A stretch of DNA of 64,000 nucleotides from NCBI GenBank assembly GCA_026023565.1, contig JAPETS010000002.1, positions 1,178,001 through 1,242,000 of the forward strand, in the 5' to 3' direction. The translations under genes and the position numbers were made by a program. The stretch is from Cirrosporium novae-zelandiae (Eukaryota). Shown one piece after another: positions 115 through 63,602 of the stretch (positions within the stretch are counted from its first letter, which is position 1; every line of letters starts with the position of its first letter). Under the pieces are notes generated by a model, which was not told the DNA's origin, did no database searches, and worked only from the letters and a program-made list of their open reading frames with translations.

Positions 115-719
115 GGTGGTGTGAGTCTTTGAATGATAGACGCGTGTAGAAGTGTGGAATCGCGGTAGAACTTCTTTGGTGTAGTCACATGACCAGCGGC
201 GACCGACGAGGTAATCGGTGGTGAAACAATATTTGAAGCTTGATTTGTTGATTCAACGGAAAGATAAGGGAAATTAATTAACAAAATGCAGGCGGGAGGT
301 GACTTCAGCTGCATGCATCCAGTAGAGTTTAATTTGGTTTTCTTGTTGGTATCTCCGTATCTATGGGTAGTTAGTATCAAATTGATATCGCTCTACTTTC
401 GAAAGTAGCGTTATAGGTTTTAGTTTGGAAAGGGTAAACGTAAGGTTGATCAAATTAGTTGGAAATCAGCCGTTAGTTTCTCTGTGATAACAAAAAGCCC
501 TGTCTACTTTTTAGTTGCCTACCGACCACAACCGATACCTGAGGCAGACCAACGTAAACCCCCCCAAATATAGACCGAGAGCACGTACATCGTTTGCTAC
601 TTCCACTTTGTCGTGTGTCTAGAATTGTTTAAATTTCTCCAAAACACCCCCCCACACAACAATCGACGAAACAATAAACATTAACATTTCATCCTTCATG
701 TTGTTTACGAAAAGTCACC

Positions 720-19793: not shown

Positions 19794-20992
19794 AAATGAA
19801 GTATGTGAACTTATACAAGATTGGGAGTTAATGGGCCGAGGGTTGCATATTTATGACGCTGTCGTCCCTTTTGTGCTGGGTTGACGCAGATGGTGCAAAA
19901 GAACATTTTTTTGATGAATTGACTATTGACCTGCATTGGTACTATTAGGAAACTGGCTTGATTGAGTTGAGAGGATTGGAAAGTCTCGGGGAGCTTCTAA
20001 TGATTTTTGGCGTTCTCTTGTTGGGTTAGGGACATGTTGCTTTTTTTTGTTTCCTTGCCACACTCGTTTGATGCATTTTCCTTTGGGCTTAATGATGATG
20101 TACATGACGTGAATGAATGAAATTGAGATTCCGAATTCAATTACACACAGTACAGCAGCACACTCTTGTATCGAAAAGAAAAGAAACTAAATACCTAGGT
20201 AGATCATATAAAAGTCTACTCGAATAATGTGATTGTTTCGAACACTATTTTGCTTAGTCCAAGGTATCCCAACAATAGTTGTTTACCTTAAGGTAGCCAG
20301 TTTCACGACAAGGCTTGCAAAGGAAACATGTCGATATCTAAGTCGATAAGTCGATACAGACTCTGTTCTAATGGGTTGCTTAATGCAATTTAGCGTAAAA
20401 GATTTATCGACGGTCTGGTTCGGCCCGATGGTTTTGGCTTGCCCTCTTGGTGCCTTGGGGCCTTGGGGCCTAGCAGCCTAGGAGCCTTGGGGTGAATGCT
20501 TGGGTTGTCCATAGCTAAAAAAGTGGTAGCCTTGAATCCTACCTGCTATCTTTGAAATTTACTTTCAGTTAAAAAGTCTTATCGCGCAATCTACTAGTAT
20601 ATCTTCCCAGGGACAGTAGAGATGTGAAACCTGTTCGTATGTGGTGGTGCTTCAATCTCTTTGTAACCATCGATTCCAGTCAATCCCTGTCAACCAACAG
20701 CGATAACTATGGTCCCAGGTGTTGCCGGAAGGATCACCGCAGCGGAGGTAAGCAGAGACCGATGTGTTGCTCTGAGCTTTCGGGGTTTCAGAAACCCAAC
20801 GATTTCTATTGTCTTTTTGAACTGAATTCTGTTCGACTGATTATTCCTGTATATAGATTGCCTGAGACTTATATCGATTCCAAGAAGCTATTGCGTTGCA
20901 GCCGACTCACCAGTTATAACCATCGTCAAATCGAGGGCGTCCGAATCAAATACATGAACCGATGACGCGGCAGAGTTCTGAAGCAAACTATC

Positions 20993-23900: not shown

Positions 23901-24424
23901 TCAGCCAGCTTATTAGGCTGCGCAAAAGTACTTGGGGCAACCAGACAGGCAGTCTGCCCAGTTCTCCCGGGGGGCAAATTAACAGTTTGCCTCTAATGCC
24001 ATTCCCCGGGGCAGGAGCTTCGCCAACATCTATTGGATATGCATCAGACTCACAAGTGACGTTACCGAGCCGGTTTGATGGTCCTCAGCCTCGAAAAGGG
24101 ACCAAGATGGGAATATATGATAGGGACTCTTCATCCGAACCCAGTCTGACGTTGGAAACACAACGGCCTCTTAGTGAACCTCAACTACAGAGGCAAAGAA
24201 GCAATAGTTCAGAGTACTCGATTCCTGGAGCTACGGGTAAAAGTGGGACACATTCACAAGGACATAGTCGGAATAGCAGTGGGGCCGACAGTATTAGCGT
24301 CAGCTACATCAAAGAAAAGGACGTGGATGGATTGGAGCGGTGGGTGTTGGAAAGACGGAGAACAGCAGAAAGCGGAGAGGTGGAAATCGTGGGGAGACAG
24401 GTCTTGGCGGAAGGCCGGATCTAA
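20993..24424 (+). CDS. Conserved fungal hypothetical protein, 1143 aa, disordered with acidic central region
   Basis: Single 1143-codon ORF with conserved-looking islands (LLNPMSLLARRRSSQ, DFDPRIRGKVVHDFSAPRPRR, IIEAANAEALENDDEGFYGQEFGFY, EPSLTPITERSEWSNR, WVLERRRTAESGEVEIVGR) and PQ/TQT repeats at ~22130-22240. Confidence 0.85.
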   Translation: MAPSAMFSRLHGKRGQHKKGSPSIKPTSPEATSPAYSFSGSQASPRIIDSASLHSNSPISPLPPVLPPIQAVYSRNVTEERRRIGPAESMSPSTSSASASISPSALPDSPALRNASFVTTVPLDGTRADSPVANRLPTPNEKERRATLSYIRPSSSGPKPTQPAQSADQTNPSHPSRHSQIFHGLHTKAGKGRLTLLNPMSLLARRRSSQVLAQKASEGHLKMLSLPGMALPDDFDPRIRGKVVHDFSAPRPRRYYSSNDATLLSQDVQNLRDAEILNTLVENDPLSANGRPSSPNGAEKRHSEKEHTPVFKEHFGDEVKPWREESRDSIGTGPSPSSPAWASSFTTSMAPPDREAPPLPPFARNLPHDFSLSGSGLGTPPQAPQIPQVPQMPQVPQVPPALQAPQTTQTTQTTQTAAPSKPPLAVVPETEVAQPLPKDSDDSPPSPASPQKSRSRGSSLVDQSLASSSLPKHLTSNASRFSFDLAGLGSAAEERLLEEKHKQKEAARREKAAHTPELRFRHSLSDYGEEDDLDPDDFLDDGLEEPIPEVSADADYETQVPVLDRNMNSFHFGPNLAPQSPLSSHPIDPSATTINFTIPGQLQDFQASDTMYGTFGNNGAEEEVGLTDNEPTIFAPSNDIQQPPMVNEVYNFHETGQNNVKSSLDDDDDLYFDDGLIGDQGGLGDSQFDESIFDDDGGFKQMRSLGTTLNDQNGVSELPQTTSKDADTSEKAVSFKDETIIIPSTMNDDSSFMAPQPSVAQKAAGPTPIPSADNLNAYHDALAAAAAQAAANGRFDRRYSQSDGSEDTENQFDMDSHPSLIADDSRTSQDTDMYTPLGFDGDADDISDDFMDDSIIEAANAEALENDDEGFYGQEFGFYAQASGERGAEYVNGGYFCPKGADGVRRSHSGRANFQEPSLTPITERSEWSNRDSMISLSMLSAPCSAQALPSPSLAQLTTDQALDEDDMTLSQLIRLRKSTWGNQTGSLPSSPGGQINSLPLMPFPGAGASPTSIGYASDSQVTLPSRFDGPQPRKGTKMGIYDRDSSSEPSLTLETQRPLSEPQLQRQRSNSSEYSIPGATGKSGTHSQGHSRNSSGADSISVSYIKEKDVDGLERWVLERRRTAESGEVEIVGRQVLAEGRI

Positions 24425-25556: not shown

Positions 25557-28500
25557 ATGTTTCGACCTTATATTATGAGGTCTGTACGGAGGCCTCTGTT
25601 CCTTGGGCGACCGAGGCTTCCCGTACATCTCGGTGTCAGACCTTTCACTACGCCGGCCGTGGTACGCTGAGAATGGTCGATATAGACCTCCCAAATGTGA
25701 AAACTAACATGATCCCCTTCTAGGCTCCAAATGATTCCTTCCTCAGCGGTAACACCGCTAATTACATCGATGAGATGTACATGCAATGGAAAGAAGATCC
25801 CAAAAGCGTCCACGTCTCGTGGCGGGTTTACTTCCGAAATATGGAGGAAGGCAAAATGCCTACTTCCCAAGCCTTCGTTCCTCCACCTACCCTAGTTCCC
25901 TCTGCAGCTGCTGGAGTACCACAACATATGCCTGGCGCCGGCTTGGAAGGGGATGAAGCTTCCATAAATGTCACAAACCATTTGAAGGTTCAACTACTTG
26001 TCCGTGCATACCAAGCGAGAGGTCACCACAAAGCCAAAACCGATCCGTTGGGAATCCGTGGTGAAGCCGACCAGTTTGGTTACCGCAGACCAAAAGAGCT
26101 TGAATTGGATCACTATGGCTTTTCGGAAAAGGACCTGGACACCGAATTCACACTGGGACCTGGTATTCTACCTCGGTTCGAAACTGAAGCACGGAAAAAG
26201 ATGACCCTTCGAGAGATCATTGATGCTTGCGAAAGGATCTACTGCGGCTCATATGGCATTGAATACATCCACATCCCAGATAGGGTTAAATGTGATTGGC
26301 TTAGAAATCGGATAGAGATCCCCCAACCATACAAATATTCGGTGGACGAGAAAAGAAGAATTCTTGATCGTCTGATTTGGAGTACCAGCTTTGAATCGTT
26401 TTTGGCACAAAAGTTCCCAAATGATAAGAGGTTTGGGTTGGAAGGTGCCGAATCTCTGGTTCCTGGAATGAAAGCCTTGATTGATCGTAGCGTTGACTAT
26501 GGCATCAAGGACATTGTGATTGGTATGCCTCATCGTGGACGTTTGAATATTCTGAGTAATGTCGTCCGAAAACCCAATGAGTCTATCTTTAGTGAATTTA
26601 GCGGGTCCGTGGATCCGTCGGATGAAGGTTCGGGGGACGTTAAATACCATCTTGGGATGAACTTTGAACGACCAACACCTTCGGGCAAGCGTGTGCAACT
26701 TTCGCTTGTAGCCAACCCATCCCATCTGGAAGCCGAGGATCCCGTGGTGCTTGGTAAAACTCGTGCCATCCAACATTACAACAATGATGAGAAGGAGTTT
26801 ATATCCGCGATGGGTGTCCTCCTTCACGGAGATGCTGCATTCGCAGCCCAAGGCGTTGTCTACGAAACAATGGGCTTCCATTCGTTGCCAGCATACCAAA
26901 CCGGAGGTACTATCCATCTTATTGTCAATAACCAAATTGGTTTCACGACAGATCCTCGTTTCGCTCGTTCCACCCCTTACTGCTCTGATATTGCCAAAGC
27001 AATTGACGCGCCCGTGTTCCATGTTAATGGTGATGATGTCGAGGCATTGAATTACGTCTGCCAGCTGGCAGCAGATTGGCGTGCCGAGTTCAAGCATGAT
27101 GTCGTTATTGATATCGTGTGTTACCGGAAACAGGGTCACAACGAACTCGACCAGCCCGCCTTTACTCAACCCCTAATGTACAAGCGAATCAACGAACAAA
27201 AGACTTCGCTTAAGAAGTACATTGACAGATTGCTCGCCGATAACACTTTTACAAAGGATGATATCGATGAACATCAAAAATGGGTTTGGGGAATGCTTAA
27301 CGACAGCTTCGACCGGAGCAAGGATTACCAACCAACTGCTCGGGAATGGCTGACCTCTGCCTGGAATGGTTTCAAGTCCCCTAAAGAACTAGCAACTGAA
27401 ATTCTGCCTCACAATCCAACTGCTGTTGATGAGGATATCCTCAAGAAGATGGGCAATACCATTGCAACTGCACCCGAAGGCTTTACTGTTCACCGAAATC
27501 TCAAACGTATTCTAGCCAACCGAAAGAAGACGGTTGAAGAAGGCAAAAACATTGACTGGGCAACTGCCGAAGCACTTGCTTTTGGAACCCTTTGCCTTGA
27601 TGGTCACCATGTTCGTGTCTCTGGCCAGGATGTTGAGCGTGGTACCTTTTCTCAACGTCATGCTGTTCTCCATGACCAGGAAAATGAAAACACATATACC
27701 CCTCTACAACATGTTGATGATACACAAGGCTCATTCGTCATATCAAACTCGTCTCTGAGCGAGTTTGGTGCTCTAGGATTCGAATATGGATACTCTCTCT
27801 CTTCACCCAATGCCCTTGTGATGTGGGAAGCCCAATTTGGTGACTTTACTAACAATGCCCAATGCATTATTGATCAATTCATTGCCTCTGGAGAAATCAA
27901 ATGGCTACAGCGTACAGGTCTTGTCATGTCTCTACCTCATGGCTATGACGGACAAGGACCGGAGCATTCTTCCGGCCGCATGGAGAGATACCTACAACTT
28001 TGCAATGAAGATCCCAGGATTTTCCCTGCGCCAGACAAGCTTGATAGACAACATCAAGATTGCAATATGCAAGTCGCTTATATGACTACGCCAGCGAATC
28101 TTTTCCACATTCTGAGAAGACAGATGAACAGGCAATTCCGAAAACGTAGGTTCTTTTTTTTTTTTTTCCTTGGCATTCTAGCTAATAACTACTCACAGCT
28201 CTCATCCTCTTCTTCTCCAAATCCCTTCTCCGACACCCTCTTGCACGCTCCCCTCTCTCCGACTTCACCGGTGACTCCCACTTCCAATGGATCATCCCAG
28301 ATCCAGAACACGGCACAGGTGAAATCGACCCTCCCGAAGAAATCAACCGCATAATCCTCTGCTCGGGCCAAGTCTATGCCGCACTCCAAAAACACCGTCA
28401 GAACCACTCCATCCGTGACACCGCCATCACTCGCATCGAACAACTAAACCCCTTCCCCTGGTCACAACTCCGCGAAAACCTCGACCAGTACCCCAACGCC

Positions 28501-28740
28501 AAAAACATCATCTGGTGCCAGGAAGAGCCGCTCAATGCCGGTGCATGGAGCTTCACCCAGCCAAGACTTGAGACCCTCCTTAACAATACCGAACATCATG
28601 ACCATAAGCATGTGCTATATGCAGGCAGAGGTCCTAGTGCCAGTGTCGCTACGGGGTTGAAGAGCACGCACGTGAAGGAGGAGCAGGATTTGCTAGAAAT
28701 GGCATTTTCAGTCAAGCAAGATAAGTACAAGGGAGAGTAA
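25557..28740 (+). CDS. KGD1: 2-oxoglutarate dehydrogenase E1 component, mitochondrial
   Basis: Exons 25557-25661 (Arg-rich presequence), 25724-28145, 28199-28740. Motifs [29 protein letters not shown]-binding [10 protein letters not shown]...[28 protein letters not shown]. Confidence 0.98.
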
Positions 28741-29462: not shown

Positions 29463-31519
29463 TCAACCCACAACCACCTCAGCCCCGATACCCGCACCAC
29501 CACCACCACCCCCCTCCTTCATCTCCGCCGCCAACGCCTCCTGATACCTCTCCAACGCCCTCGCAATAGCCCTAACCGTCGGCTCCATAACCCGCATCAC
29601 CACCTCCTTTCCACCCCCCACACTCTCCAACTCCCTCTCAATATGGTCCTGCCTAATCCTACGCCCCGTATCCCGCATCCTTTGCTGAAAATAGCGTTTC
29701 TTTGCCGCAATGGCCTCTTCGCGGAGCCTTTCTGCGTCTTCGGCTACGGCTGCAATGCGTGCGAGCGAGTTGTTGAGGGATTCGATGAGTCCTGGGATTT
29801 CGGAGGCGCGGTCGGCGGAGCCGGAGAGGAATGTGTTCCAGAAGTGGTGCAGGAATTCGGTGGTTGTTTTGTGGGTTGTTGAGAGGGAGGTGCAGATTTG
29901 CGCGGGGAGGGTTGTCGTTGTGGTGGTTAGGGGGAGGGTGTTGGAGGTGGAAATGGTGGCGGTGGGGGCGGGGGATTGGAGAATTGTGTGCATAATGTGG
30001 GTTTTTGCGGCTGTGAGGCTGCGTTTGCTGCTGGTGTGGTGAGTGTGGGTGGGAGAGGAGTTGGAGTTGGAGTCGGAGTCGGAGTCGGAGTCCGGGTCGA
30101 TGGCGATGGCTGCGTCGAGGTTTAGTTCGCCGTTGTGGCTCTGGCTGATTCCTGTTGCGAGATCCTGGTTTATTTCTAAGAGCAGCGCGTGTGGGTTTTG
30201 GTGTAGCTGTTGCAGCGCGATGGAGAATCCCTCGTCAGGCACTTTGTCGCCGAAGAATTTGCTTTGCTCTTTGAGGTCTAGGATTATGCGGTTGACTTCG
30301 GGCTCGGGTTCCAGGTCCCGCAGCTGGAGCTGGTTAAAGGTTTCTTCGTCGACGCCGATGGGTTTTGAGGGATCTGCGTCTTGGGGGACTACGTTGGATA
30401 GCATCTTTTCACTCATGCTGTTCAGAGTTCGGATGATGGGTATTTTGTTTACGGCGGTGGGGCGCATCATAATATCTGGTGCGTTACCTTGTTTTTGGCT
30501 ATGGTTTTCTTCGTTTCCTTCAAGGTCAATGATAAGAGGGACATGGATGGAGTCGAGTCGTTTGCTCCGGTCGACGTCGTCCTCCATATTAAGATACTTG
30601 TCTAGAATTTGGTCGGTTGCATCGCTGTCCATTATTCTATCTCCTTTGAGCTTCTTGAAAAGTCGGCTCTGAAAAAATCGGGACCAGAATGCTGTCTCAC
30701 TAAGCCTTGGGACGTTTTCATCATATACTCGTCTCAGTAATGGATGTTGGTTGAACATTAGATCGAACTGTTCCTTGCTAATGCTCAGACTGGCACGATT
30801 GTCCACCATCTGTGGTTTAATGGTTGCCAGGACATTATAAGCTCCCCTTGTTTGGCTCTTCTCAATAGCATGCGCTCGTAGGAGGGGAATTCTTGAGGCC
30901 CAGAACTGCTTTGTAAATTGTATCTCGGATATCGAATCCGGTTTTGCTTTTACGGCTTCCTGGAAAGTACTTTTGAGAGATGCATTTGCCTCTAATAAAG
31001 ATATCTGCAGTTCAATGTTGGATTTCAGCTGATTATCATCGTCCCATTTGTTCCTTTCATTTCCACCCTGGTTGAGCGCACCCACGATGGCCATGGCTGC
31101 AGAGGAGCCTCCAGCATCCGCCGTTGGTGTCGACGTACTAGCCTTGGCAGCATTGATACCCGTACTAAGAGCATCTTTAATCACATCCGCCTCCGCTCGC
31201 GCCGTAGCTTGCGAGGTAAATGAAAAGACATGCGATGTTTGAGCAGCTGCTCCCGGTGGTTGTTCGAAGACTTTAAGTGCCACTTTAGCGGCGGTAGCAG
31301 GAGTTTGCTGGAGATCTTATCCAGGATAGAACAGTAGATTAGTTTCTACCATCCTAAGGCATAACCATCATACTCACTAGTGATTGCGGATACCGGTAAG
31401 CTCAATGTGGGAGAAGCTCCTGGGGTAGTTGGGATCCATGTGAGCAACTGAGAGGCTAGAGAATAGGTCAATGTGCCCTCTTTCTTCTTATACGTAGTTG
31501 CGCCATTTAACGAGGCCAT
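29463..31519 (-). CDS. TFB1: TFIIH subunit Tfb1/p62 (PH domain plus BSD domains)
   Basis: Exons 31519-31378 and 31315-29463 (AAG acceptor restores ITNLQQTP). Motifs YKKKEGTL, RGAYNVLATIKP, FWSRFFQSRLFKKLKG, IIDLEGNEENHSQKQGN. Confidence 0.92.
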
Positions 31520-31748
31520 CTTTTTCTATTTCTTTTTTTTTTTAATCGTAATTGGAGAGCAGCTCAAATAAGATCATAACTTTTACGTTGAATGGGTTCC
31601 CCAACGGACGCAAGCTCTCTTCCTCTCACAAGTTTTGTTTTGACTTGCTCGTTGCTAGAAATCCATGTAAATACTTTTTTTGTATAATTTGCAGTGGTGG
31701 ATATACCTATTTGATAGTTGCCTAGTTTCAAAGAATAGAGAGGTGTTT

Positions 31749-31772: not shown

Positions 31773-32081
31773 GTGATTTGTAACAGTAGAAGGATGAGTA
31801 AGGTGGAGAAGATTGAAGGGATCGAGACTGTCGGAGAACTTCTGCTGTACGTAGAGCTTCGCTGAATATGACGTTTTGTATCCGAGACCGAAATCCTCGC
31901 ACTTTTTCATCCAACCCCCCCAACATATAAACACTCCACTCCACTCCACTTGTTTGCTGATTAAATCGAGCTTCGATTAACAACCAAAAAAATATTCAAT
32001 TGACACTCTCCACTCCGTGTATCCAAATATTAATCGAGTTGATTCCCATATTATACCTACTACTCTAACCAAAACACAATC

Positions 32082-32961
32082 ATGGCTTCCACTCTTCTCA
32101 AGACATCTACAGCCCGTACAGCTCTCAAAGCCATCGGGTCCTCCTCTACCAGGGCCGGAATGTCCGGTATCACCTTCACACGAGGGAAAGCAACCCTCCC
32201 AGACCTTCCCTGTATGTCACTATTCCTCATTCTCCAATACAAATACTAACAATGAACCCCACGCAGATGACTACGGAGCCCTAGAACCCGCCATCTCCGG
32301 CAAGATTATGGAAATCCACCACAACAATCACCACCAAACATACGTAACGAACCTTAACACCGCCCTCGATAAACTAGAAGACGCAAAGGGTGCCTCCCAC
32401 ATCCAAGCCCAGATCGCCCTGCAGCCCGCACTCAATTTCAACGGCGGGGGACATATCAACCACAGCTTGTTCTGGGAAAACCTCACTCCCAAATCATCCT
32501 ACGAGCCACCGTCTGGAGCCCTGGGGAAGGAAATTGATTCTACATATGGCAGCCTCGAAAACATGCAGTCGAGATTCAATACCGCATTGGCAAGTATCCA
32601 AGGCAGCGGATGGGCGTGGCTAGTCAAGGACAAGGAAACCAATGAACTTGCTATTAAGACTTATGCCGTATGCATTCCTGCCTTTCTTTGCCCTCAATTC
32701 TTAGGTACTACCTAGAACCCAGCTCTGACCGTTCCGCAGAACCAAGACCCCGTCATCGGCCAGTACATCCCCATACTCGGCATTGACGCCTGGGAACACG
32801 CTTACTAGTAAGCAACATCACTAATTCACCATCTATCCTCGCAACCCATATACTAACAATCCACCCGTAGTCTCCAATACCAAAACCGCAAAGTCGAATA
32901 TTTCAAGGCTATCTGGCAAGTCATCAACTGGAAGACAGCCGAGAAGCGTTTCGCTGCGTAA
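32082..32961 (+). CDS. SOD2: Mitochondrial Mn superoxide dismutase
   Basis: Exons 32082-32211, 32267-32667, 32740-32807, 32871-32961. Presequence followed by LPDLPYDYGALEP, HHNNHHQTYV, FNGGGHINHSLFW, QGSGWAWL, DAWEHAYYLQY. Confidence 0.97.
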
Positions 32962-33230: not shown

Positions 33231-35025
33231 TCACCAAATCTTCACATACGTCCCCACCCTCCTCCAAACCGGCATCCTATAATACTTATCCAACATCTCA
33301 ATCTCCTCCACACTAAGCGTGCGCCTCCCCGTTTTCAGATCCGCCGTCCTCGGATCCCTCAGCTTAGTCCTTGGATACACGAACTTAAACCCCACAAACC
33401 CAACCAGCACCAGTAGAACCCCAATGAAGTATTCGAAAAACGAGTACACGGACACGGAGTCGGAGCCCACGGGCAGGAGACCCGTATAGATGAGGGAGGT
33501 GAGGAGGAGAGTACCGATCAGGAAGAGCCAGGTTGGGGGGAACGGATACAGCGTGCAGCGATAGGCATAGGTTTCGGTAAACAGGGGATCGTTCTGGGCT
33601 TTGATGGCCGCGCGGAAACGGAACGAGGTGATGGAGACGATGATCCAGACGAGCATGAACGAGGAGGAAATGACATTGGAGAGCCAGGTAAAGACGATGG
33701 CGCCCGTGTTGCTGAGGTTGATGTACGTGAGCATGATGGCGATCCCCCCCGTGATGGCGAGGCTCCATCGCGGGCGGCCCTTGGAGTCGATGCGCGCGAT
33801 GAATTTCGGGAGGAGACCTTGATGCGACATGGCGCGGAGGATCCGTGAGGAGATGTAGACGCTCTCGACGGCGACGCTCAGGATGCCTAGAATCACGATT
33901 ACGTTGACGAAGTCTGGGAGGCCCTGGATTCCGGCGTCGTTGAGGGCGATTACGAAGGGCGAGGCGGAGCTACTGGAGCCGCTGAATAGGCGGGGTTCGT
34001 CTTGGGGGACGAGGATACCGATCACGACTACGGAAAGCAGGAATACGACTGTGACGCGTAGCGGGACGAGCTTCGTGGCGTGCGCCATGGAGAATCGCGG
34101 GGATGCAGATTCGCCGGCCATGATTCCCGTGAATACCTGGTCGCCCATGGCCCAGATGGCGATGAGCATGGCGTTGCCGAAGCCTTGGAACCCGTTGGCG
34201 AATGCTGGATAGTCTCGCCAAGTTTCACCGTTATGGACTTTGCCAGCTGGGCCGGCTCCGCCAATCATGGCAAAGCATGCGACGATGATGATGAAGAATG
34301 CGACGATTTTTAATATGCAGACCACGTACTCAAACCACGCGAACCATTTGTTGGGCATGATGAAGATGCACATGCAGGCGGCGACAAACACGGAGACTTA
34401 AAGTTCTGGGTTAGCAAATTATGTATACCTCATCAGCGACCCCTCTTCTTGGTTTCTTGACGACTCACGCCAAACTGCTTCGTGAACTGATCCATCTGCC
34501 CAGTAATTGACTAGTGTATTAAACACCAAAGCCTCAGCGGAGGTCGTCGCGGTCCATCCTAACCATTCTGCAAATCCGACTGCAAACGCTGCGGCGGGGT
34601 CAACCCAACGATCTGCAAAGTTGACAAAGTTTCCCGAAACTGGAAAGGCGATTGTCATTTCTGATAATGTTTGTAGCACTACGGTGACGCCTGTGCATAC
34701 AAGGACATAGGCTAGAAACACGGCGCCGGGCCCTCCTATACGTGTACATGACCACTGGTTAGAGATTAAAACATTATTATTATTATAAAAGGGAGGCTAA
34801 GCGGGTATCGAAATTGATCTCACCATTTGCCAGGGCTTTTCCGGTTACGACCCAATATCCGGCTCCAAGCTGGGAACCTAGAGATATGACATGAATCTGT
34901 CTTGGAGTAAAATCTCTTCGAAACCCCTCGTCAATAGGAATTGTGTCCTTGATCTCTCCCTCTAAGACTTCTGGGGGGGACTTCGGCTCAGGACTCTTGA
35001 TATCGAAACTATTCTTCTCTTCCAT
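33231..35025 (-). CDS. Amino acid permease (APC superfamily, yeast amino acid transporter type), substrate unknown
   Basis: Exons 35025-34824, 34735-34469, 34396-33231. Motifs RQIHVISLGSQLGAG...GGPG, FPVSGNFVNFADRWVDPA, AGESASPR, SPFVIA; about 12 hydrophobic segments; C-terminal DLKTGRR. Confidence 0.92.
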
Positions 35026-38702: not shown

Positions 38703-41700
38703 TCAGTTACCGGCTCTGCTCATTCCGATTAGACGTTTGACGCCAACCTGTAGATTTCCCTCGTTAGTACGTTTTTCTCGATGGAAAGGATGGTAGAAAG
38801 TATATGATTTATGATAGAAGTGCTTACCATCCAGTGCCCGCATTCCTCTGTCTTGTTCGTCAAAATATCCAAATGGATCCCCATTGCAGCTTCGTGATCT
38901 CTTTGCTGTAGTGCACCAGCCAGCTCAGCCATCTGATCCACGGTATCGGGCTTGAGCAAGTCCTCTCTGTTCAAATGATCAAATAATATATTCAATCTCT
39001 TCTCCGTGTCATTTACTTGCGCCTTGTATGACGCTGGAGCAATGGACTTTACGCGTTGCATTTCGCTATTGAGGATCTCATAAATAGGCATGGCTGAGGG
39101 AGAAATGTGGCTGCGATCTCCGGCGGGATATTTCGGTCCAGCGGGGGCGCGACGCTGTGATTGTGCAGTTCCTGGTCGGGAACCCCCTTGCGAACCTCCT
39201 GATGGGTGAGCTCCGTGCATAGATCCCGACATTGAAGATGTCCTGGCTTGCCTGGGTGGAGAAGATGGTGTGTATGGACTAGCAGCAGGTGGTGCATGTT
39301 GCATGGTATACGGATTTGGAGCAACTGGTTGCCTCGAAGCTCCACCCATGGGTGGCGGCGCATGCATAGGGCCCGGTGGAGGAGGGGTGGGAACAGCTTG
39401 TGACTTTGGGGCTGGAGCATAGCGGCTTGGAGGTGGCGCTGCGGCTGGAGGAGCATTGTAAGGAGATGGGCCTCGAGGAATCATGTGAGAGGTCGCAACG
39501 CTGAGTTGAGGGGAGCTCGTGGCGGGAGGAGCGTAATGATTCGCGGCGGAGGAAGGGCGTTCGATTTGAGCCGCTAATCCGGTTGGTGGAGAAACCATGC
39601 GAGGAGGGCCTTTGGGTGGTGGTGCAACAGGTGGGGTTTGATGGCGGGAGCCAAACATCTGAGGAGGAGGTTGTGTACCTGGGCTGGTAATATTGGGTGC
39701 ATTGGGGAAAGGTGAAGAAACAGTGTCCCGACCCTGAGCTGGAGTTCCCCGACGGGAAGTGGAAGGCTTAACAAAGTCGTCTGGGATATCATTCCAATTG
39801 CCAATCTTTGCTTGCGATGGAGGTGGAACAGCTGGGGATGAATTGAAGCTTCGAGGGGGAGGGGGTGCTACACCCCTACCCTGCGGATATCCCATTTGCG
39901 GGGGTGCTGGCATTCCAGGCTGTCTCATAGATTGAGGTGGTTGATATCCCCTATTGTTTTGGGGAGCATATGGATTTGAGGACTGTGCAGACTGGGAAGT
40001 TTGATTTAGAGCAGAGGGAGCGTAAGGGTTCGTAGGTGCGGGGCTGGCTGTCCTAGCTGTTTGATGCATCGGATTGTAGGAATTTGAGACTCGTGACGAT
40101 CTTGCCATGGATCCCTGCCTAGTGTGTCCTGGTTTTGAGATTGGAGCAGGTTGAGCTTTCTGGACTGGCTTCCTCAGTGCTTGTTGGACTCTGTTCTTTG
40201 CAACATCCCCAGCTGCGTAGTGTTCGGGGATAAGAGTTAGGTATTTTCCGGCGGCAGAAAACATGCCGTGGGTGGCCAAAATATCAGCATATTCAATATA
40301 TTTGTCGTAGAGTCCCGCAAGCTTCCAGTCCGCATTCTCCTGCTTGCCATTGTCTTGGAATTTGGTTACTTCTCGGAACACGGTAACCTTCTCGATCAGA
40401 GCTTGCAATGCTCTTGCATGGATTGAAAATGTAGATGTGCTGCCTACATCCGGATCTGAGGTACTCGATGCTTCCCGTTCCTGGAGTTCCTTGGTCCAAA
40501 TGGCAACAACTTTCTCGAGCTTAGATCCAGCAATATAGCAGAATGAGGCGTCTTTTCGACCATCAGTAGTCTCGAATAACCGATCACCCAAAGTCTCGCA
40601 GAGATCAGGAAATTCTTTGGCATCAGCAAAAGTGCACAAAGTTGCCATAACCTCTTTCCAGTTTGCCAGATCTGTATTGTAAACAACATCCCAGAGATCT
40701 TTACCAACGACTGAAGCCAGCAGACGATGGTAATTCGGACCTTCGGTTTTCGAGAAATATGCATTTTGCGCTTTTTCAATGCATTTTTGTCCTCCACAGA
40801 TGGCAAACATGAAGGCATCAGTCATTCGGTCTTCTTTCAAGCAAATATCAAGAGCTTTCTCAAATTTGCCCATCATAAGGGCCTTTGTGATTTGCTTGTC
40901 CACTTCAGATTCGGAACCATTATAAATGCTGAACGGGTCGTTTCTTTTCGCGGTCTTTGGAAGCTTGTAGTCCGCAGGGAAACTATCATCATGGGTAGAA
41001 TCAAAGAAAGATGATAGCCGATTCTTGACATGACCTTTAACCTTGGGTGCTGCCAGCAAACTAGAACTGCCATTAGTCTCGACACGATCCGCTGATTCGT
41101 CAGAAGCGTCAGGGGTATCAGAAAACCCTAGATATTCTACAAGCCGTTCTCTCGGGTTCTTGGAGATGAGGGTCTCTATCACCTTCCAGTCTTCCTTATC
41201 CTCGTCCGTTTGAGCTAATGCTATCCTTGACTGGCAAATACTGGCAAGATCGCCGCCCTGAACTGCCTTATCAAAGTCAGAGGCAGCTTCACCGATGACA
41301 TTATCGACCTCGAAATGAGTAATATGAATTGTTGACATCCTTTTGGCTCCTGGGGCTGCAGACGAGGGATCGGCGGTTTTGACAGTAACAATCTTTGCAC
41401 CAAATCCAAACGATGCTCCAATTGGCCTTTCAAGCCACTTCGGTGCTTTGGGTAAGGAAAAAGAATCCCCCTGGGGTTGTGTCGCTGATTGGGAGAAAAA
41501 ATCTTCGTCGGCCTGAGCTCTCCCTGGAGTGCCAGGTTGTCCCGAGGTTGGTCCTCCTGTGCTTTGAATAGTCTGAATTCCAATCTTGCCGTCAAACGAA
41601 GCTGTAGCAAGGAAATTCGGATTACGGGGATTCCATTTAGTTTGGAACGTCCAGTTTGTAACAACAGGAAATTCACCATATTGTTCGCCAGTCATGGGAT

Positions 41701-42671
41701 TCCAGCAGATTGTGCGGTTGTCCTTTCCACTGGAGAGAAGGAGCGTAGGATCTTCAGCACACCATGAAAGCGAAAGAACACCAGACTCATGGCCCTTCAA
41801 AACCCTCTCCGGAGCATTGGAATTTCTCAAATCCCATACACATATCAAGGGATCACTATCCAGAGGAATGGCGGTGACCAACCTCGTTGGCATCGACGGA
41901 TCCCAAGCCACAGCACTGACGGGTTTCCGTCCAAGATTATTCAATATCATATTCTCTTTCTTGTCCTTGGAATCCCATACAGTAACAAAACCTCCCTGAC
42001 TACCAGTCGCAAGGATCTTTTGAACTCTTTTATTCCAGTCAAGACATTCAAAATCATCTGCTCTTCCGGTTGGGTGTCCTAACCGCTGAGCACTTTCAAG
42101 ATCGTTGACATCTGATATATAAACCTCGCCTTTGGCACCAGCAGTGGCCAATAATTCGGGCTTAAAAGGATTGAATTGGAGAGCCTTGATAGCACCGCTA
42201 TGTTTTGAGGACCTTGACAGCAGAGCATCACTGAATGACTTGTTAAACGTATCCACCATAGCTTCTAGACTTTCAAGCATACCTCTCTTTATCGAAAAGT
42301 TTATCTGCACTCCATAAGTCTAAGGAGCCGTTTTCTAATGCACCAGCGATTATGCCCCTCGAGGAATCCCCTGGGTGACTACTCCAGGCAATATCATGAA
42401 ACCTATTTCGTATATTCATCAGTATATGACCTTGTTTAACAGTATCAATGGGTTCGAATCACCGTGAGTCGGTATCAATGCTTGCTGCTGGTTGAAGTTC
42501 CATGCCCAGTTGGGCGTTGTCCAGATCCAAGTCCCATATCTCTAATTGAGTTTCATTGGAAAAGTCCGCATCGACAGCACCGGCTACAGTTCCAGTAGCA
42601 ATTAAAGGTAAAGTAGATGCTGGAGACCAGGCAAACGCCGCCGTCCTTGGAATTTCACGGAGGCGCACCAT
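38703..42671 (-). CDS. SEC31: COPII outer coat protein Sec31
   Basis: Exons 42671-42463, 42402-42283, 42230-38828, 38747-38703. [19 protein letters not shown]40 repeats, [17 protein letters not shown], proline-rich region, C-terminal [14 protein letters not shown]...WMVGVKRLI. Confidence 0.97.
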
Positions 42672-53479: not shown

Positions 53480-54638
53480 CTACCTAACTTTGATCCCTTT
53501 TACCACTTTTAAACCTTTCCGCTCTTGGGCTCCGATCCTTTCGGCTTCCTTTCTCCTCCTCCATTGCCATTCAACCAACACTGGCAAAAATTGCCACAGA
53601 TCGAATTCTGGCCACAGACACTTTAGGAAGATTATGTCTGTCTTTTCATGACACTGCCAGAGCATGAAATCGCTCAGTCGCTCAACCCCGGAGGTGCGAA
53701 CCAGGAGGTCTAGGGGTGGAGTGCCAGCCGTGAACATGTGGTCGTTGAGAGTCTCAGAGGTGATTGATTCGGGATCGGGTAGATGTGAGGAAGCCGAGGA
53801 CAAGTGCTTCTTGTAAGGTGTTTCGGTTCCAGACTCGGGGTGTAGCGTTGTAGTGGAGGAGAGGGAATCCTCAGCGTCAGAGCTAACGCCCGAGTTGGTG
53901 CCAGGCGATGGAGAATTAGACCGTCGATAGGCCTCAGCTTGGGCAGTAAGATGTCGCGAACGAATAGTATTAGAGATACGGGTTTCGGAGAACGGTCTGT
54001 TAGGCGAGGGTAGTGGCTTGGAATAATCAATCACAGTATTGCGAATAGCGGTGGTAATTTCATCTCTTGATGTATATGGGAAGCAGACGTTCAGGATAGC
54101 ATCCCCATTTCGACTGGTCAGCTCGACGGCCTTGTCAATGGCTCTCCGAACATCTGGTTTGATGAGTGCTTTTTGTCCAAGAATCCGGATGCTAGCACCA
54201 TATTGATCAAGGAGATCGCCATGCTGGGCAATTTGAAAGAGCTTAGTTTTGGCTATTTCCATCAGTGCATCCACCTCATATTTTGAGCGCTTAAAGTTCT
54301 CGATGCTGAATGCGTAGATGGTAACGACCTTGACACCGGATTTATAGCATACTTCAAGGATCTAAGGGGGTTCGGATGTCAGCAGTGAAATCCCGACTTG
54401 TTCAGATACCACACACCTGCGCCAGAGCTTCAAATCCAAGATTATGGCCTTCGATCGTCTCAATTCCATGATTTCGTGCAAATCTTCTATTCCCATCCAT
54501 TACAAAAGCAACATGTTGAGGAATTGGTCCTTGACGCAATGCTCCAATGAGGAGTTCCTGGAGCGAAGCAGTAGCCCACTCCATGGGTGGAGAGGCACGC
54601 AGCCATTTTCGAATCTGTGAAAGATGCATTGAAGGCAT
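53480..54638 (-). CDS. RER2: cis-prenyltransferase (dehydrodolichyl diphosphate synthase), Rer2/Srt1 family
   Basis: Exons 54638-54417 and 54361-53480. PQHVAFVMDGNRRFAR, TIYAFSIENFKR, CFPYTSRDEI, DLLVRTSGVERLSDFMLWQ, LWPEFDLW. Confidence 0.95.
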
Positions 54639-55469
54639 CTTGCCAGAGTTTGAGGGGATTTAGCTTTAATAACGTGTTCGTTTTGCACGTGTCAAAGTCC
54701 ACTTTGCGTGGTCACGATACTGTTGCAGCGACGAGACCACTTTGGGTATAAATATCAACAGGGGCCGATCCAGCTCTCTGGAGATCAAGCAATATTTCTC
54801 CTTCTCTATGTTCCTAAACAGCAAGAAGGTATAATATGATTATATGAAACGACAGTAAGGGATAGGGAGATATAGAGAACGATTTTTAGGATGACGACTT
54901 CTTCAAATTGCCAACCTGTTATCAGCACAGGGCTCAACGTTCAACAAGTATTTTTTGGCTTGAGGTAAGTTTAAACGAAGGATCCCTTGGTTCCAGCAAC
55001 ACTCTCGCCGCAACTTTCCCATCCCAGTGACACCAAGAAACCGTTAAGCCTGCAGCATTATGCAATGCAATGCATCAACAGTTATGAAATTGTGATATAA
55101 TAATAATAATTACCTACTTGAGTCGGCATCTACGTATCTAGGTAATATCCTACAAACTACAAACACGTGGAAGGGAAATATATGGTCATGGATAAATTTT
55201 ACCTTTAGTTTATCCAACATTTATAACCTGTCGCAACACTGGTATCAAAATTCCTACTTAATTTTCCATTGACAGTAAGAATTACTGCCAAACAAAAAAT
55301 ATTAGATTAAATTCATGCTATGCCTGTCCCTGACTTGTCGTCATGACTTCCCTAGGAGACCCTATATCTAAAGAACAAGCTTTCGAATTGGTAAAACATC
55401 CAGTTGCGTTAGATAATCTCATTTGATCTGCAGAACACTTGAACCGTTAATCTTCTGCATTTCTCTTTT

Positions 55470-58483: not shown

Positions 58484-59128
58484 AAATCAAGAATCTTGAT
58501 CATAAGATGATTTGTTATCTCGAGCTTCTTCCGGGGGATCTTTACGATAAACTCTGCATATCTGGTTGAGCATCGCATTGGGAGCTTTTCAGTCGGATCA
58601 AACAGAGCTCAATGCTGATTTGTTGGAGTTATTCCTCCATCCATTTAATGAAACCAAATAGAGAATTTATTCGAATATCCGTGGTGTAATAGTGATGGCT
58701 GTGATGTAGCTAGGGAATTTATTAAAGTTGCATTTATCTTATCATTTAAGATGGAAAAGGTTGAATAATGCAATTATGGATTATATCAACCTTACAATAC
58801 TACAGTAGTAGAGTATAGTCTAGACAGTAGCTTCTTGATCTAGAAATGGCATTGGATAAGTGAAGCAGAAATAAGCATTGGTCCGTGCCCTTTGACTTAT
58901 ATCGGACTTAACAAACCTTCCTGAGTGCCAAATGGATTACTAAATAATTTATTCCAACATTGAGCCTGCCGCATCTTTCAGTCTTTCAGATACCCAATAC
59001 ATTCTACCTTTAATCTCAATATCCTTTCAACTGGTTTAACGTTCGCGGAGCCCAAACCAAGTTTAAACCCCCCTTCACGGCATGTGGATTTGGTTTGAAG
59101 ATATTCAACACAATTACAAACATCAGCC

Positions 59129-61844
59129 ATGTCCGATAACAGTGGTGGAAACCTATACAATAATAACGATGACCAACCCGGAGACTACTCCAGTCTCAGT
59201 AATTCCTTGATCACTCCTCCAGCCGTTTTCGTCCCTCCTTTCTGGGACCCAACTAATTTGTCATGGATACCTCCAGGACAGAATTTGGCCAATCCATACG
59301 GGAGCACAATGCTAACACCTGGACAAAACTCATATTTTTCATCATCAAACCGTTTCCAACCATTTGAACAGACTCTCCTACAGAACCCTAATACAGAGCC
59401 AACAGTATACCCCTTCTAAGTCTTTATAGAGACCAATTGCTAACAGAGTACAAGGATACCGTAGAGAGTCCATCCGTAAATGCCATTGCAGATCCCGAAC
59501 CGAATGCTAGAGCTGCCCAATTAAGAGCTCAACTTCTGAAAAAACTCCAAGGAAATAAGGAAGCCACTCCCAAACCGAAGGAGGAGGACCAAAATAATAG
59601 GAGGGAGGTAGACGGGACATCCGCACATCCATCTTCGGAGGACATGTTCGTGGTTGATTCTCATATCGGCCCTAAGGGACACAGTATGCATGACTCGTCC
59701 AAGGCCGTCTCAACTCCCCGGAAACTACGGATTATTCCCCAAGATCCACCAAAAAGTGCAACAAAACCAATAAGCGATACGGCCAAGGTCGTCTCAACAA
59801 CTCAAGCCGGACCTGCCAGAAATAATTCTCCAATAGCGTCTAAAAAAATGTCATCTCCAGTAACTTCTCGGAAGGACTCTGGTACAGATGTAGAAGAAAT
59901 GATTGCCCAGGAAAGAGCCGTCGCGGACAATCAAAATCGCAAAAATATCAAACAAGCAGCTCAACGAGACTCGATAACCGAAAAGGCGCATCCCAATACT
60001 AGTCCAAGGCTCTTGAAAAAAGATAGTAGCTCCCTTCCGAAAGAAACAACACATAATCTAGTGCCAACCAAGAAGATCCAAAATTTAAAAACCGACAGCA
60101 ATGGTTCCCCCAAGAAGATATCACAGTATCCGAATGAATATCTCGATCTTACAAAAATCGAGAAGGATGGTCCCCATAAAACCTTGTCTAATAAAAGTAA
60201 AGAAATTTTTAATGAGCTAGGTCAAACTGATTTGGATGATGTTCGCGAGTGGCTTGAAATAACTGGATTCCATAACTGTGCTTATCGCAAACGAACAATA
60301 GAGCGTCAACGAAAGTTGGCAGATCTTCAAAGGCAAAAAGAGGAACTAGAGCGAGAAGAGCAAGAAGAGGAAGAACTTTTCAGAAGGGGCAGAGCTCGGT
60401 CCGTCTTCCATCCTGACACCATGGCATCGCCTGCTTTGTTACGATCTGTGGAAGGTAGTGGAAAGCCAATAGGATATCAAACAATCACAAAGGTTTCGCC
60501 AGATAGTGGAGATGCTACCCTAATGCAAGGACAAAAGCGTCGGCATGACGGTACTGAAGACCCTATGCAAATAGGAAAGGTAGCACGTACCTCGGCCTCT
60601 GACAACCATGGCCCAGCGGCTACTACAGATGCAGATGCGGAAAACAATATCTCATCTGCGTTAGTCAGGACTAAACCTAAAGCACCCTTGGCTAACGTAG
60701 ACCTGCAACCACGAAATATGAGAGGAATGCCACCACCGCCATTTCGTCAACGCTCAAGAAGCTCTAGCCCTCCGCACCATACGTACGGCTCGCAGCCTCC
60801 AAATTCGATAAACAGAGTACCGAGACATTATCAGGGACAAAGAGAATCATTTACACATAAGAGAGGTGGAAGCCGAGATAGTTCACCCAATTCTAATGGA
60901 CGTGACAGATATTCATACTCAAAGTTTCGATATGGGGATCGTGATAGTAGTCACTACCGCCCCGACCACGACCCAAGTCGCAATATTTCGATTCGAGGCC
61001 GCGGAAAAAATGACCGTAATTATGACGAACCCAGGGATTACCCTGTCGGTGCAGATTCGAAGTTGGAGAGCGAGTCATTGAATCTTCGGGCAGGCGGTTC
61101 GTACTGGCCTTTGCCGCGTTGTGATTAATAACGATTAACATCAAGGGTCCTACATTAGATTCAAGATACTTTATGGTAAAAAGCTTCAATTTTGAAAATG
61201 TGGAAATATCACAGCGCGAAGTGAGTTAGTCTTGCATCTCTCTCCCCTCGGAATAGAACTTACCGAAAAAGAATACCTGGTGTACTCAAGAACACAATCT
61301 TAAAACCTTTCTGGAAGCTTTCGAAAAGTCTCGTAACGTCATTTTGGTTTTCTCTGTCAACCAGAGTAGGGCTTTCCAAGGATATGTATGTTCCCCCCCT
61401 AGACATTTATTTTCCAGCGATGCAGGCCAAATCCCCCATGAAGACTTGTCTAGCACGTTTTGAGTGAGAGCCACCTTGCGTTTACCTAGGACCCCAGCCT
61501 AACCTTTACTTGGCTTAGGATAAGTGAAGGTATAGTGCTTTCTATTATATTTGCTGATTTCTGTTACTTAGGCTCGTATGGAAACTCAACCTGGTGCGCC
61601 TGGTGTTGCTGAACCTACCTGGCAAAAGAAACTTAAATGGACATCGACTCCCCCTTTCAAGATCCGCTGGATCGCAAAAACACAAGTTGCTTTCCGCCAT
61701 GTTGGCCATCTGATCAACGCATATAATGAAAATCACGCTGTTTTAATTGGTCGAGACGGACAAGAGATTGAAGGAGAATGTGGGAGATCGTTATGTGAAA
61801 TTCTCGATAAAGCACAACTTGGCCCTCCGGAAAAGACGTATTGA
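59129..61844 (+). CDS. YTH-domain RNA-binding protein (YTHDC1-like, putative m6A reader)
   Basis: Exons 59129-59404, 59455-61096, 61159-61220, 61272-61385, 61572-61844. C-terminal SRYFMVKSFN.ENVEISQRENTWCT...NVILVFSVNQSRAFQGYARM...PTW...PFKIRWI...HLINAYNEN..VLIGRDGQEI. Both cage-type Trp residues are present, preceded by an RS/RD-rich region. Confidence 0.9.
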
Positions 61845-63602
61845 AAATTAAACACCCATATCATCTTTTCTCTTAATGGAGCAAGGGGATAATTTGAATT
61901 ATTCGCCGATGGGAATATAGGCTACCGTTGTTATCTTACCCTCCCAAAATTATAATGACAACGAAGACAAACGGGCTATCGACAATCTGCCTATCTTATA
62001 TAACAATTCCACGCCTGCAATTGTCAGTCACCGATAATGAGATAATCGATATGGTTTCAACGAAGAACCTATCAAGAGTTTCCGGCATAAATCTAGGGTT
62101 TGATGAAACCAAAAAAAAAAACTAAAAAAACAAAAACAAAAAACAAGTTGATGAGAGGTAGAGAAGGATAGGACCTCCGGATTTTTAATCAGGGGTGATT
62201 TTATACATACATACGTACATACCGCATGGACTGATAATGGCGCAACGCACACATCACATTCACTCAACATCCCTCCCTAACTTGTCTTAATCATTCTACC
62301 CCCCTCGTTATAGAATGCTCTTGATTTTATTTACTACATAAGTTTATACTCCCTCTTATTATTTCCGAGTAAAGTAGGTAATTCTTAAAGCGTAGCCGGC
62401 GCACGTATATTATATAGTCGGTTGTAGTTGTCATGAGCCAAAGGTATAAAAGAAGGCTAAGCCTTGTTATATTCCATGGTGGTGGCCACAACGAGTCTTA
62501 GATGCACATCTACATCTACATGTATGTACTTACTACCTACCTTGCATGCACGCCACGCGCGCAGAGGTGAAGGAAAGGAAAAAGCTACACTTACACACTC
62601 ACACTCATAAATTGTTTTTTTTTTCTCTTCACTATTCCCTCCCTTGTGGAGTAAGTAGTGTAGTGTAGTGTAGTGTAGTGTAGTTACTATAAAGTAATGG
62701 TAAATAAATAAATAATTTTAAAGTACGTGTGTACATATATAATTGAAATTGTAATTGATGATGATAGATTAGTTAGTTAATTAAGTAAATCAATGTTTAA
62801 AAACCCAATATGGATATATAAATATAGATATAGATATGAAAAGTTGGTATAAAGTATACTCAAAAGTAACCCAGGTAGTTAAATTTGTGTTTCCTGAATG
62901 TTACGGTTTCATGCGAAAAACTTGCTTGGTTTTCATTTTTTGGGTGTGCCCTTTAGTCTAGGTCTTATTTATGCTAATTACTTTACATCTGCCTCGGTAC
63001 TTTTCTAATATGTTTTCCCTTTCCAATCGTAACACTGAACCTGCGTTTGCTTTGCTTGTATCTACATTCTAAAGAGCTTACGATAAATACGATGATTATA
63101 GTATGGTATGGTATGGAAAGTATGCAATACACCAACTAAACCAAACCAAACCCACTTCCAACTTCGAAAAATTCCAACATTCCAACTTCTAGATAGTCTA
63201 TCACCTAGTCTATAGAGCACAATATCTACTAACTTATCCCGTTCTAGCATCTAGCAGTAGCAAGGTGAATTTTGAATCCCATGCGAATACGAATACAAGT
63301 ACTCTACGTCACCCCTCGGCTCAGTAGCACTAGATATTATTATAAAACTAATAAACTACTATTTAGAATTTTAACAACAATTATAATAATAGCATAGAGA
63401 GAGAGAGAGAGAGAGAGTCATATGGTATTAAATGTGTACATTTAAAGTCAAGCTCCCTGCTCTAGTTAATTAGTACTTCCCGCTTCTACAGTAATTACCC
63501 TCTTAACAGATGTGGTATCTCGAAGGCTAATAATTAAGGACCCCTGGATGTCCCCCCCCCCCCACCACCCAATCAATCCACCTTCAATTAATCAACCCAC
63601 GG

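Follow-up and report, generated by a model that had tools for sequence, protein, structure and literature searches.

A window of 64,000 nucleotides (nt) from Cirrosporium novae-zelandiae, a fungus placed in Xylobotryomycetes, Pezizomycotina (assembly GCA_026023565.1, contig JAPETS010000002.1, positions 1,178,001 to 1,242,000, forward strand), carries a five-exon gene for a protein with a YTH domain. In a preliminary description, the last intron of this gene (intron 4) was proposed to hold a complete second set of splice signals around an 11-nt poison micro-exon, by which the gene would limit its own expression through nonsense-mediated mRNA decay (NMD). Our analysis indicates that intron 4 is probably one constitutive intron with a structurally silenced decoy 3' splice end, not the host of a poison exon. 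The internal branch motif CCTAAC and the letters taken for cassette and donor were found to be the two arms of one predicted hairpin, a relation absent from the preliminary description. The features concerned are as follows (coordinates are those of the window).

59129..61844, plus strand: YTHDC1-type YTH-domain gene of five exons, with a spliced translation identical to a deposited protein
59129-59404, 59455-61096, 61159-61220, 61272-61385 and 61572-61844, plus strand: exons of the YTH gene, with the stop codon TGA at 61842-44
61386..61571, plus strand: intron 4, 186 nt, phase 0, between FQGY and ARM, the Pfam profile being continuous across it (58/59)
61498..61518, plus strand: decoy 3' splice end read from the letters, CCTAAC (61498-503, branch A 61502), then 16 nt to the end of the first AG, TAG 61516-18
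61519..61529, plus strand: proposed 11-nt cassette GATAAGTGAAG (GAT AAG TGA in frame), contained entirely in the hairpin's 3' arm and loop edge
61530..61535, plus strand: GTATAG, proposed micro-exon donor, pairing with CUAAC with a bulged A
61496..61539, plus strand: predicted RNA hairpin of 17 bp (2 G.U) with 2 one-base bulges and an 8-nt loop, -18.1 kcal/mol
61399..61453, plus strand: 7-bp inverted repeat CTAGACA 61399-405 / TGTCTAG 61447-53 with a 41-nt spacer, the only inverted pair found

The spliced translation of the five exons agreed letter for letter with a deposited protein of 788 aa (P0001), recorded as 'MAG: hypothetical protein M1834_003052 [Cirrosporium novae-zelandiae]'. The Pfam YTH profile PF04146 was distributed over exon 3 (profile positions 1-19), exon 4 (21-58) and exon 5 (59-134), with scores of 46.0 bits for exon 4 and 60.3 bits for exon 5 against a gathering cut-off of 22.1. 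As positions 58 and 59 adjoin across 61385^61572, the annotated junction leaves no gap in the domain. The phmmer search of PDB with the YTH domain gave the best E-value for YTHDC1 (2.3e-26), followed by CPSF30 (1e-23) and YTHDC2 (1.6e-22), and the lower-scoring YTH chains were those of YTHDF1 (2.5e-11) and the Pho92/Mrb1 type (about 2e-8). The identification of the product as a YTHDC1-like reader in the preliminary description thus appears to be a fair label, since the domain scored best against YTHDC1 and far lower against YTHDF and Pho92/Mrb1, and the animal (non-fungal) homologues bear YTHDC1-like names. Two tryptophan residues, W663 in exon 4 and W715 in exon 5, were invariant across 17 aligned fungal YTH proteins; we take them to be the residues of the aromatic cage, as in YTHDC1 structures. 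The long N-terminal region encoded by exon 2 (547 aa) had no relative except its own protein in the protein collection searched. A fungi-wide 'YTH1' clade distinct from PHO92 has been described (PMC10826363), in the available text of which the splicing of YTH1 is not discussed. The protein of the window resembles the fungal YTH1 and animal YTHDC1 readers in its best score against YTHDC1 and its invariant Trp columns, and differs from them in the long N-terminal region without a relative outside its own genome.

The four introns of the gene are 50, 62, 51 and 186 nt long in order. The abnormal length of the last one, already pointed out in the preliminary description, held up against the other 14 introns placed in the window, which were approximately 48-72 nt. 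As intron 4 was the only long one among the 15 domain-splitting introns placed in the 64 kb, the length anomaly is real for this set, in which only short introns with Pfam continuity or long flanking open reading frames (ORFs) were kept and for which the ORF-joining finder was too noisy to place long introns. The 14 introns, which split or join Pfam domains, were the following.

SAPS gene: 54 and 53 nt
Nramp gene: 51 and 70 nt
Amino-acid permease gene: 72 nt
2-Oxoglutarate dehydrogenase gene: 53 nt
Psg1 gene: 48 nt
GET2 gene: about 56 nt, by arithmetic from Pfam coordinates
Prenyltransferase gene: 55 nt
Fe/Mn superoxide dismutase gene: two of about 60 nt, by arithmetic from Pfam coordinates
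TFIIH p62 gene: about 60 nt, by arithmetic from Pfam coordinates
YTH gene, its own shorter domain introns: 62 and 51 nt

Direct reading of the letters located every motif of the preliminary description where it had been placed. The outer signals of intron 4 are the donor GTATGT (61386-91), the branch motif GCTGAT (61553-58) and the acceptor TAG (61569-71). The internal signals were compared with two controls: the interior of the intron resampled 5000 times by a first-order Markov model, and 1374 tiles of 186 nt taken from the window. The decoy has a consensus branch motif 8-35 nt upstream of the first YAG, as expected of an alternative 3' splice site. An internal CTRAY followed by its first YAG 8-35 nt on was present in 14.2% of the resamples and 12.5% of the tiles, and the frequencies fell to 3.3% and 2.5%, respectively, when a perfect CTAAC was required. 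By its letters, the internal CCTAAC-16 nt-TAG is a credible, good-quality candidate for a 3' splice end and a moderately unusual one. The acceptor side of the proposed second set of splice signals was thus retained, and the donor side, GTATAG, is not a signal.

The donor side was scored with a matrix built from 72 introns, namely 55 distinct ones from related YTH loci and 17 from the window. Of the 72 real donors, 71 outscored GTATAG, and its score was equalled or exceeded at 33% of the GT sites of the window; another GT inside the cassette, GTGAAG, scored hardly above it. GTATAG was also predicted to be base-paired, with a mean probability of being unpaired of 0.18. The full set of acceptor, short cassette and weak donor arose by chance in 5.5% of the resamples and 3.6% of the tiles. 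A true 11-nt poison micro-exon at 61519-61529, lying between introns of 133 and 42 nt, would therefore have to be spliced from a donor at background level, and we consider it extremely improbable, all the more as the cassette together with GTATAG is accounted for as the complementary arm of the CCTAAC hairpin. The letters are present and the frame does give GAT AAG TGA, and intron 1 of the same gene uses the equally weak donor GTATAC, which means that weak donors can work in this gene. On the other side, the downstream intron of 42 nt compares with a minimum of 41 nt in the whole intron set (one locus) and of 47 nt in the window, and cassette exons are rare in the intron-defined splicing of fungi. 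The outcome for the protein would, moreover, be the same as that of a simple alternative acceptor.

Translation in frame confirmed that splicing to 61518 would place two further codons and a TGA (GAT AAG TGA) behind FQGY, whether the 11 nt are treated as a cassette or not, so that the stop would remove W715 and all the rest of the YTH domain, as stated in the preliminary description. Splicing at 61518 would add 53 nt to the mRNA. The last nucleotide of the premature stop is 61527; a junction could follow it only 2 nt later, and none would follow with the simple alternative acceptor. No coding intron comes after intron 4, which would place the stop in the final exon, with no exon junction 50 nt or more beyond it. 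The coupling to NMD in the preliminary description was thus not supported, and the junction-dependent logic is weak for any premature stop here. The remaining outcomes are NMD, which the long 3' untranslated region (UTR; about 317 nt longer) may trigger, or a truncated protein.

The other elements of the intron gave little. The 7-bp inverted repeat, which had been singled out in the preliminary description, was at chance level, as a perfect 7-nt inverted pair arose in 723 of 2000 first-order Markov resamples of the intron and the fold of the region had a z-score of -1.26 (22 of 200 shuffles as good). Four DRACH motifs were observed against a resample mean of 2.9, and 33% of the resamples had at least four. 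The fold of the whole intron was unremarkable (z -0.97; 31 of 200 shuffles as good). A blastn-short comparison of intron 4 with the 64-kb window returned chance matches of 10-12 nt only, and an Rfam scan of 58500-62500 gave no match inside the intron at E up to 10.

The local fold around the decoy was different. The predicted hairpin at 61496-61539 has all bases of CCUAAC paired in its 5' arm, UAG 61516-18 in its loop, and the cassette followed by GUAUAG in its 3' arm, where GUAUAG pairs with CUAAC around the bulged A. Its stability of -18.1 kcal/mol corresponds to a z-score of -3.1, with 1 of 200 shuffles as stable, and it appeared in both the minimum-free-energy and centroid folds of the whole intron 4 as well as in folds of sub-regions. 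It was also the minimum-free-energy structure at 15, 25, 37 and 45 C (-26.9 to -14.8 kcal/mol). The alternative site is thus covered by a predicted stable stem, and the thermodynamic prediction makes the decoy branch inaccessible to U2/SF1: the mean probability of being unpaired was 0.02-0.06 for CCTAAC, versus 0.50-0.52, about half open, for the annotated branch GCUGAU. When CCTAAC was held fixed and the rest was shuffled, 2 of 400 sequences buried the motif as deeply. The sense strand folded more stably than the antisense strand (-18.1 versus -11.7 kcal/mol).

From these predictions, intron 4 (61386-61571) would normally be removed in one step at an ancient position, FQGY/ARM (the slash marking the junction), having grown to 186 nt in this lineage. 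The consensus branch CCUAAC and the stretch GAUAAGUGAAG-GUAUAG would be the arms of a 17-bp stem-loop within the intron, with UAG in the loop. With the decoy branch base-paired, U2/SF1 would take the accessible GCUGAU downstream, and the first AG after it, ending at 61571, would serve as the acceptor and yield the full YTH domain. Occasional use of 61518 would then be splicing noise. GUAUAG would look like a donor because it is the imperfect complement of CUAAC, and nothing more. We infer that the hairpin would form in vivo and keep the decoy silent; budding yeast offers an established precedent for intron structure that conceals 3' splice signals, according to the summary in PMC11585973.

Alternatively, the same 44 nt could have lengthened the intron as a small foldback or mobile insertion, or could be the precursor of a small RNA, CTAAC being incidental in either case. 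The segment is a near-perfect inverted repeat, with 15 Watson-Crick pairs of 17 and 2 bulges, and would explain part of the excess length. Nevertheless, no other copy was found in the 64-kb window (best matches 12 nt, E 0.55), no Rfam family was matched inside the intron at E up to 10, and the two G.U pairs favour pairing of the sense-strand RNA over a plain DNA palindrome. A stem of 17 bp is also short for Dicer-type processing, which weighs against a small-RNA precursor. We judge an origin of this kind to be quite improbable.

The position and length of the intron were then compared in related genes. Metagenome contigs were scanned with the alignment of 17 fungal YTH proteins, and 80 of 211 confirmed loci were kept; because one of the two search patterns spans the FQGY/ARM junction, intron-less genes were over-sampled. 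A phase-0 GT..AG intron lay exactly at FQGY/ARM in 41 of the 80 loci, corresponding to 25 distinct sequences; the other loci with a recognisable junction read straight through it, and five had no recognisable context. The lengths among the 25 distinct sequences were 47-100 nt in 19 and 150-229 nt in six, as listed here.

L025:4112-4261, FQGY/ARM intron of 150 nt
L009:4296-4451, FQGY/ARM intron of 156 nt
L031:3264-3440, FQGY/ARM intron of 177 nt
L073:4354-4531, FQGY/ARM intron of 178 nt
L079, FQGY/ARM intron of 178 nt
L040:1232-1460, FQGY/ARM intron of 229 nt

In the genes with a long FQGY/ARM intron, the neighbouring E/N intron was 66-95 nt or absent. Among 20 distinct loci possessing both introns, whose lineages are not independent, the FQGY/ARM intron was the longer one in 18; the two were equal in L017 (75 and 75 nt), and the FQGY/ARM intron was shorter in L068 (47 versus 55 nt). 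The corresponding lengths in the window gene are 186 versus 51 nt. A tree of the exon 4-5 peptides united L009, L031 and L073 in one clade and placed L040 and L025 elsewhere, and the window protein grouped loosely with Onygenales and L023. The latter, the nearest relative with DNA, has an intron of 71 nt at FQGY/ARM. As judged from these sequences, the position is ancient and widely shared and the lengthening happened several times, since 41 of the 80 loci share the intron and its long forms are scattered on the tree.

The interior of the intron was not shared in the same way. No k-mer was shared above chance among the seven FQGY/ARM introns of at least 100 nt, and none of 10 long related introns contained an internal CTRAY acceptor, nested unit or micro-exon set. 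The conserved cassette that the preliminary description had proposed to look for in orthologues was accordingly missing from these 10 introns, which is a weak test and weak evidence because all the relatives are at most 57% identical in the domain. No hairpin comparable to that of intron 4 was found in the other long introns, where 18 to 125 of 150 shuffles matched the best local one; the whole-intron folds of four other long introns had z-scores of -2.2 to -3.2. A likeness of the form GAC-TTTATT, seen by eye among the long introns, dissolved under the k-mer chance test.

Some deposited gene models are irregular at this intron. That of Lasallia pustulata (P0067) runs into it past FQGY, and two Teloschistales models (P0054 and P0052) omit all or part of exon 4, indicating that gene predictors stumble at the FQGY/ARM intron in assemblies of lichen fungi.

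The reading of intron 4 as one constitutive intron with a silenced decoy is supported by the identity of the deposited protein, the continuous YTH profile, the background-level donor, the hairpin statistics, the lack of conservation of the decoy and the 71-nt intron of L023. Several points weigh against it. By sequence the decoy end is at least as good as the annotated end: CTAAC was the commonest branch form (15 introns, versus 4 with CTGAT) among the 40 of 72 introns with CTRAY, both ends have pyrimidine-rich spacers of 14-16 nt, and a perfect CTAAC with YAG is uncommon by chance (2.5-3.3%). The structure statistics were calculated after the fold had been seen and are suggestive, not proof; when the strongest local hairpin at any place in a shuffled intron was counted, 7 of 150 shuffles matched it, so that its significance is only marginal. 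In addition, one point mutation could remove a harmful decoy, and its retention under the hairpin would fit a switch as well as neutrality.

For this last reason, namely that a harmful decoy losable by one mutation is nevertheless retained under a specific stem, a regulated alternative 3' splice site gated by the hairpin keeps some weight, although we regard it as unlikely. The gate might open through slow folding, the action of a helicase or the binding of a protein, perhaps the YTH protein itself, and splicing would then proceed through the CCUAAC branch to 61518, a step that we hold to be just as unlikely. The product would be an mRNA with a long 3' UTR, possibly sensitive to NMD, or a protein without a working pocket for N6-methyladenosine (m6A), and we give this outcome the same small chance. 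The strength of CCTAAC-16 nt-TAG (2.5-3.3% by chance), the specific burial of the branch in a stable stem (2 of 400 shuffles), the more stable fold of the sense strand, the position of intron 4 as the sole long intron of 15 in the window, and the FQGY/ARM introns of at least 150 nt in 6 of 25 distinct sequences next to E/N introns of 66-95 nt or none would all accord with such a gate, as would the frequent autoregulation of RNA-binding proteins by unproductive splicing, as far as the sources surveyed go. However, the other long introns conserve neither the decoy nor any motif, the hairpin is predicted to be closed at all physiological temperatures, the stop in the last exon is invisible to junction-dependent NMD, DRACH motifs are at chance level, and a literature search at the level of titles and abstract openings found no YTH gene reported to be regulated in this way.

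In its most specific form, the opening of the gate would be regulated, the agent being a helicase, slow folding during transcription, or the YTH protein itself bound to a methylated GGACC, a motif which lies three bases upstream of the hairpin stem, so as to divert splicing to 61518 and make the reader self-limiting; we rate this form as less probable still. If it were true, it would constitute a structure-gated self-limiting circuit of a fungal YTHDC1-type reader, acting through a truncated protein without the pocket or an unstable mRNA, and it might perhaps be echoed by the recurrent lengthening of the FQGY/ARM intron in other lineages of Pezizomycotina.

Alternative 3' splice sites occluded by structure are known from budding yeast, in the APE2 'thermosensor', RPL23B and ATG38 (Meyer et al. 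2011 and Plass et al. 2012, as summarised in PMC11585973). According to that summary, the APE2 type is like intron 4 in that a stem-loop in the intron hides one set of 3' signals and the spliceosome uses another, so that opening would switch the acceptor. In the yeast type there is one branch site, with the hidden AG on its downstream side, and the reading frame is kept in both products. In intron 4 the predicted stem takes in an entire second branch site and has the AG in its loop, it is predicted to be stable to 45 C, and the product of the site would be truncated. Autoregulation through alternative splicing coupled to NMD, by poison exons or cryptic sites, has been described in the sources surveyed for SR proteins, RBM39 and AtGRP8, among others. 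These systems and the present gene have in common a gene for an RNA-binding protein and an alternative splice choice, a candidate one here, that gives a premature stop. The present gene is unlike them in having no conserved cassette, no credible cassette donor and a stop in the last exon. YTHDC1 was reported to promote NMD of SRSF mRNAs, its own mRNA not being mentioned in the available text (PMC9061745), and the same search of titles and abstract openings returned no report of a poison exon or of NMD-coupled splicing feedback in a YTH gene.

A further pairing of signals within intron 4 was noticed.

61464..61518, plus strand: nested intron-like unit GTGAGA ... CCTAAC ... TAG of 55 nt, the modal intron size here

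This unit might be excised first and the remaining 131 nt be removed by the outer signals; by-products containing a stop would result if the outer donor were joined to the inner acceptor or the inner donor to the outer acceptor. Its length is the modal intron size of the genome, its donor GTGAGA ranks among the best 4.4% of GT sites, and its perfect branch motif lies 16 nt from the AG; a comparable unit was present in 1.2% of the 5000 resamples and 1.6% of the 1374 tiles. Complex nested introns are, moreover, known in Pezizomycotina (PMC8469720, in the text available). Against this, the unit was noticed post hoc, its branch site would be buried by the hairpin at 61496-61539, and it is not a stwintron, as it interrupts none of the outer splice signals and its excision creates no new one. 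We therefore consider two-step removal very improbable. As described in the available text of PMC8469720, the stwintrons and internally symmetrical introns of Hypoxylaceae share with intron 4 a nested intron-like unit and an internal inverted symmetry. Unlike in stwintrons, the outer GTATGT, GCTGAT and TAG of intron 4 are intact, with no donor, branch or acceptor interrupted, and the symmetry is a local 17-bp hairpin versus terminal inverted repeats of 45-55 nt in the Hypoxylaceae introns. The intron also differs from these in having no known sister copies and in its ancient, not newly gained, position. An in-frame TGA (61461-63) immediately precedes the GT of the nested unit.

If the reading of a constitutive intron with a silenced decoy is right, intron 4 is a cautionary case: one hairpin in a long fungal intron can give rise, as a by-product, to what looks like a 'complete second set of splice signals'. 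If the gated alternative were true, the gene would be the first YTH reader under unproductive-splicing control found in our search of titles and abstract openings, and a clean fungal case of a branch site, not merely an AG, hidden by RNA structure.

Other splice signals of the YTH gene were also irregular. The donors of intron 1 (GTATAC, 59405-59410) and intron 2 (GTTCGT, 61097-61102) were weak, scoring below 70 and 65 of the 72 real donors, respectively, and the junction of exons 1 and 2 had no support from any homologue. In intron 2 (61097-61158), the sole branch-like motif is TTAAC (61135-39), followed by an AG at 61144-45 ahead of the used acceptor at 61158. Splicing at 61145 would shift the frame, and this AG is thus a second potential unproductive acceptor in the gene; the annotated junction is backed by orthologue alignments (AG/DSRYF).

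The remainder of the window was annotated with Pfam as follows.

8503-11549, minus strand: SAPS
13910-15863, minus strand: Nramp
25724-28737, plus strand: 2-oxoglutarate dehydrogenase E1
29466-31525, minus strand: TFIIH p62
31981-32958, plus strand: Fe/Mn superoxide dismutase
33234-34796, minus strand: amino-acid permease
38732-42319, minus strand: WD40 protein
53483-54659, minus strand: cis-prenyltransferase
Within 678-58480: GET2, Snf7, an RRM protein, PhyH and Psg1

No Pfam match at E up to 1e-4 was obtained for two ORFs longer than 1000 aa (678-3866 and 20966-24421, both plus strand). The sole weak Rfam match in 58500-62500 was PreQ1 at 62094-62131 (E 1.7, below the gathering score), which coincides with an A-rich run and is surely due to chance in a fungus. 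That run, at 62110-62150, is one of several simple repeats on the 3' side of the YTH gene, together with (GTAGT)n at 62655-62685, (GA)n at 63398-63417 and a C run at 63549-63562.

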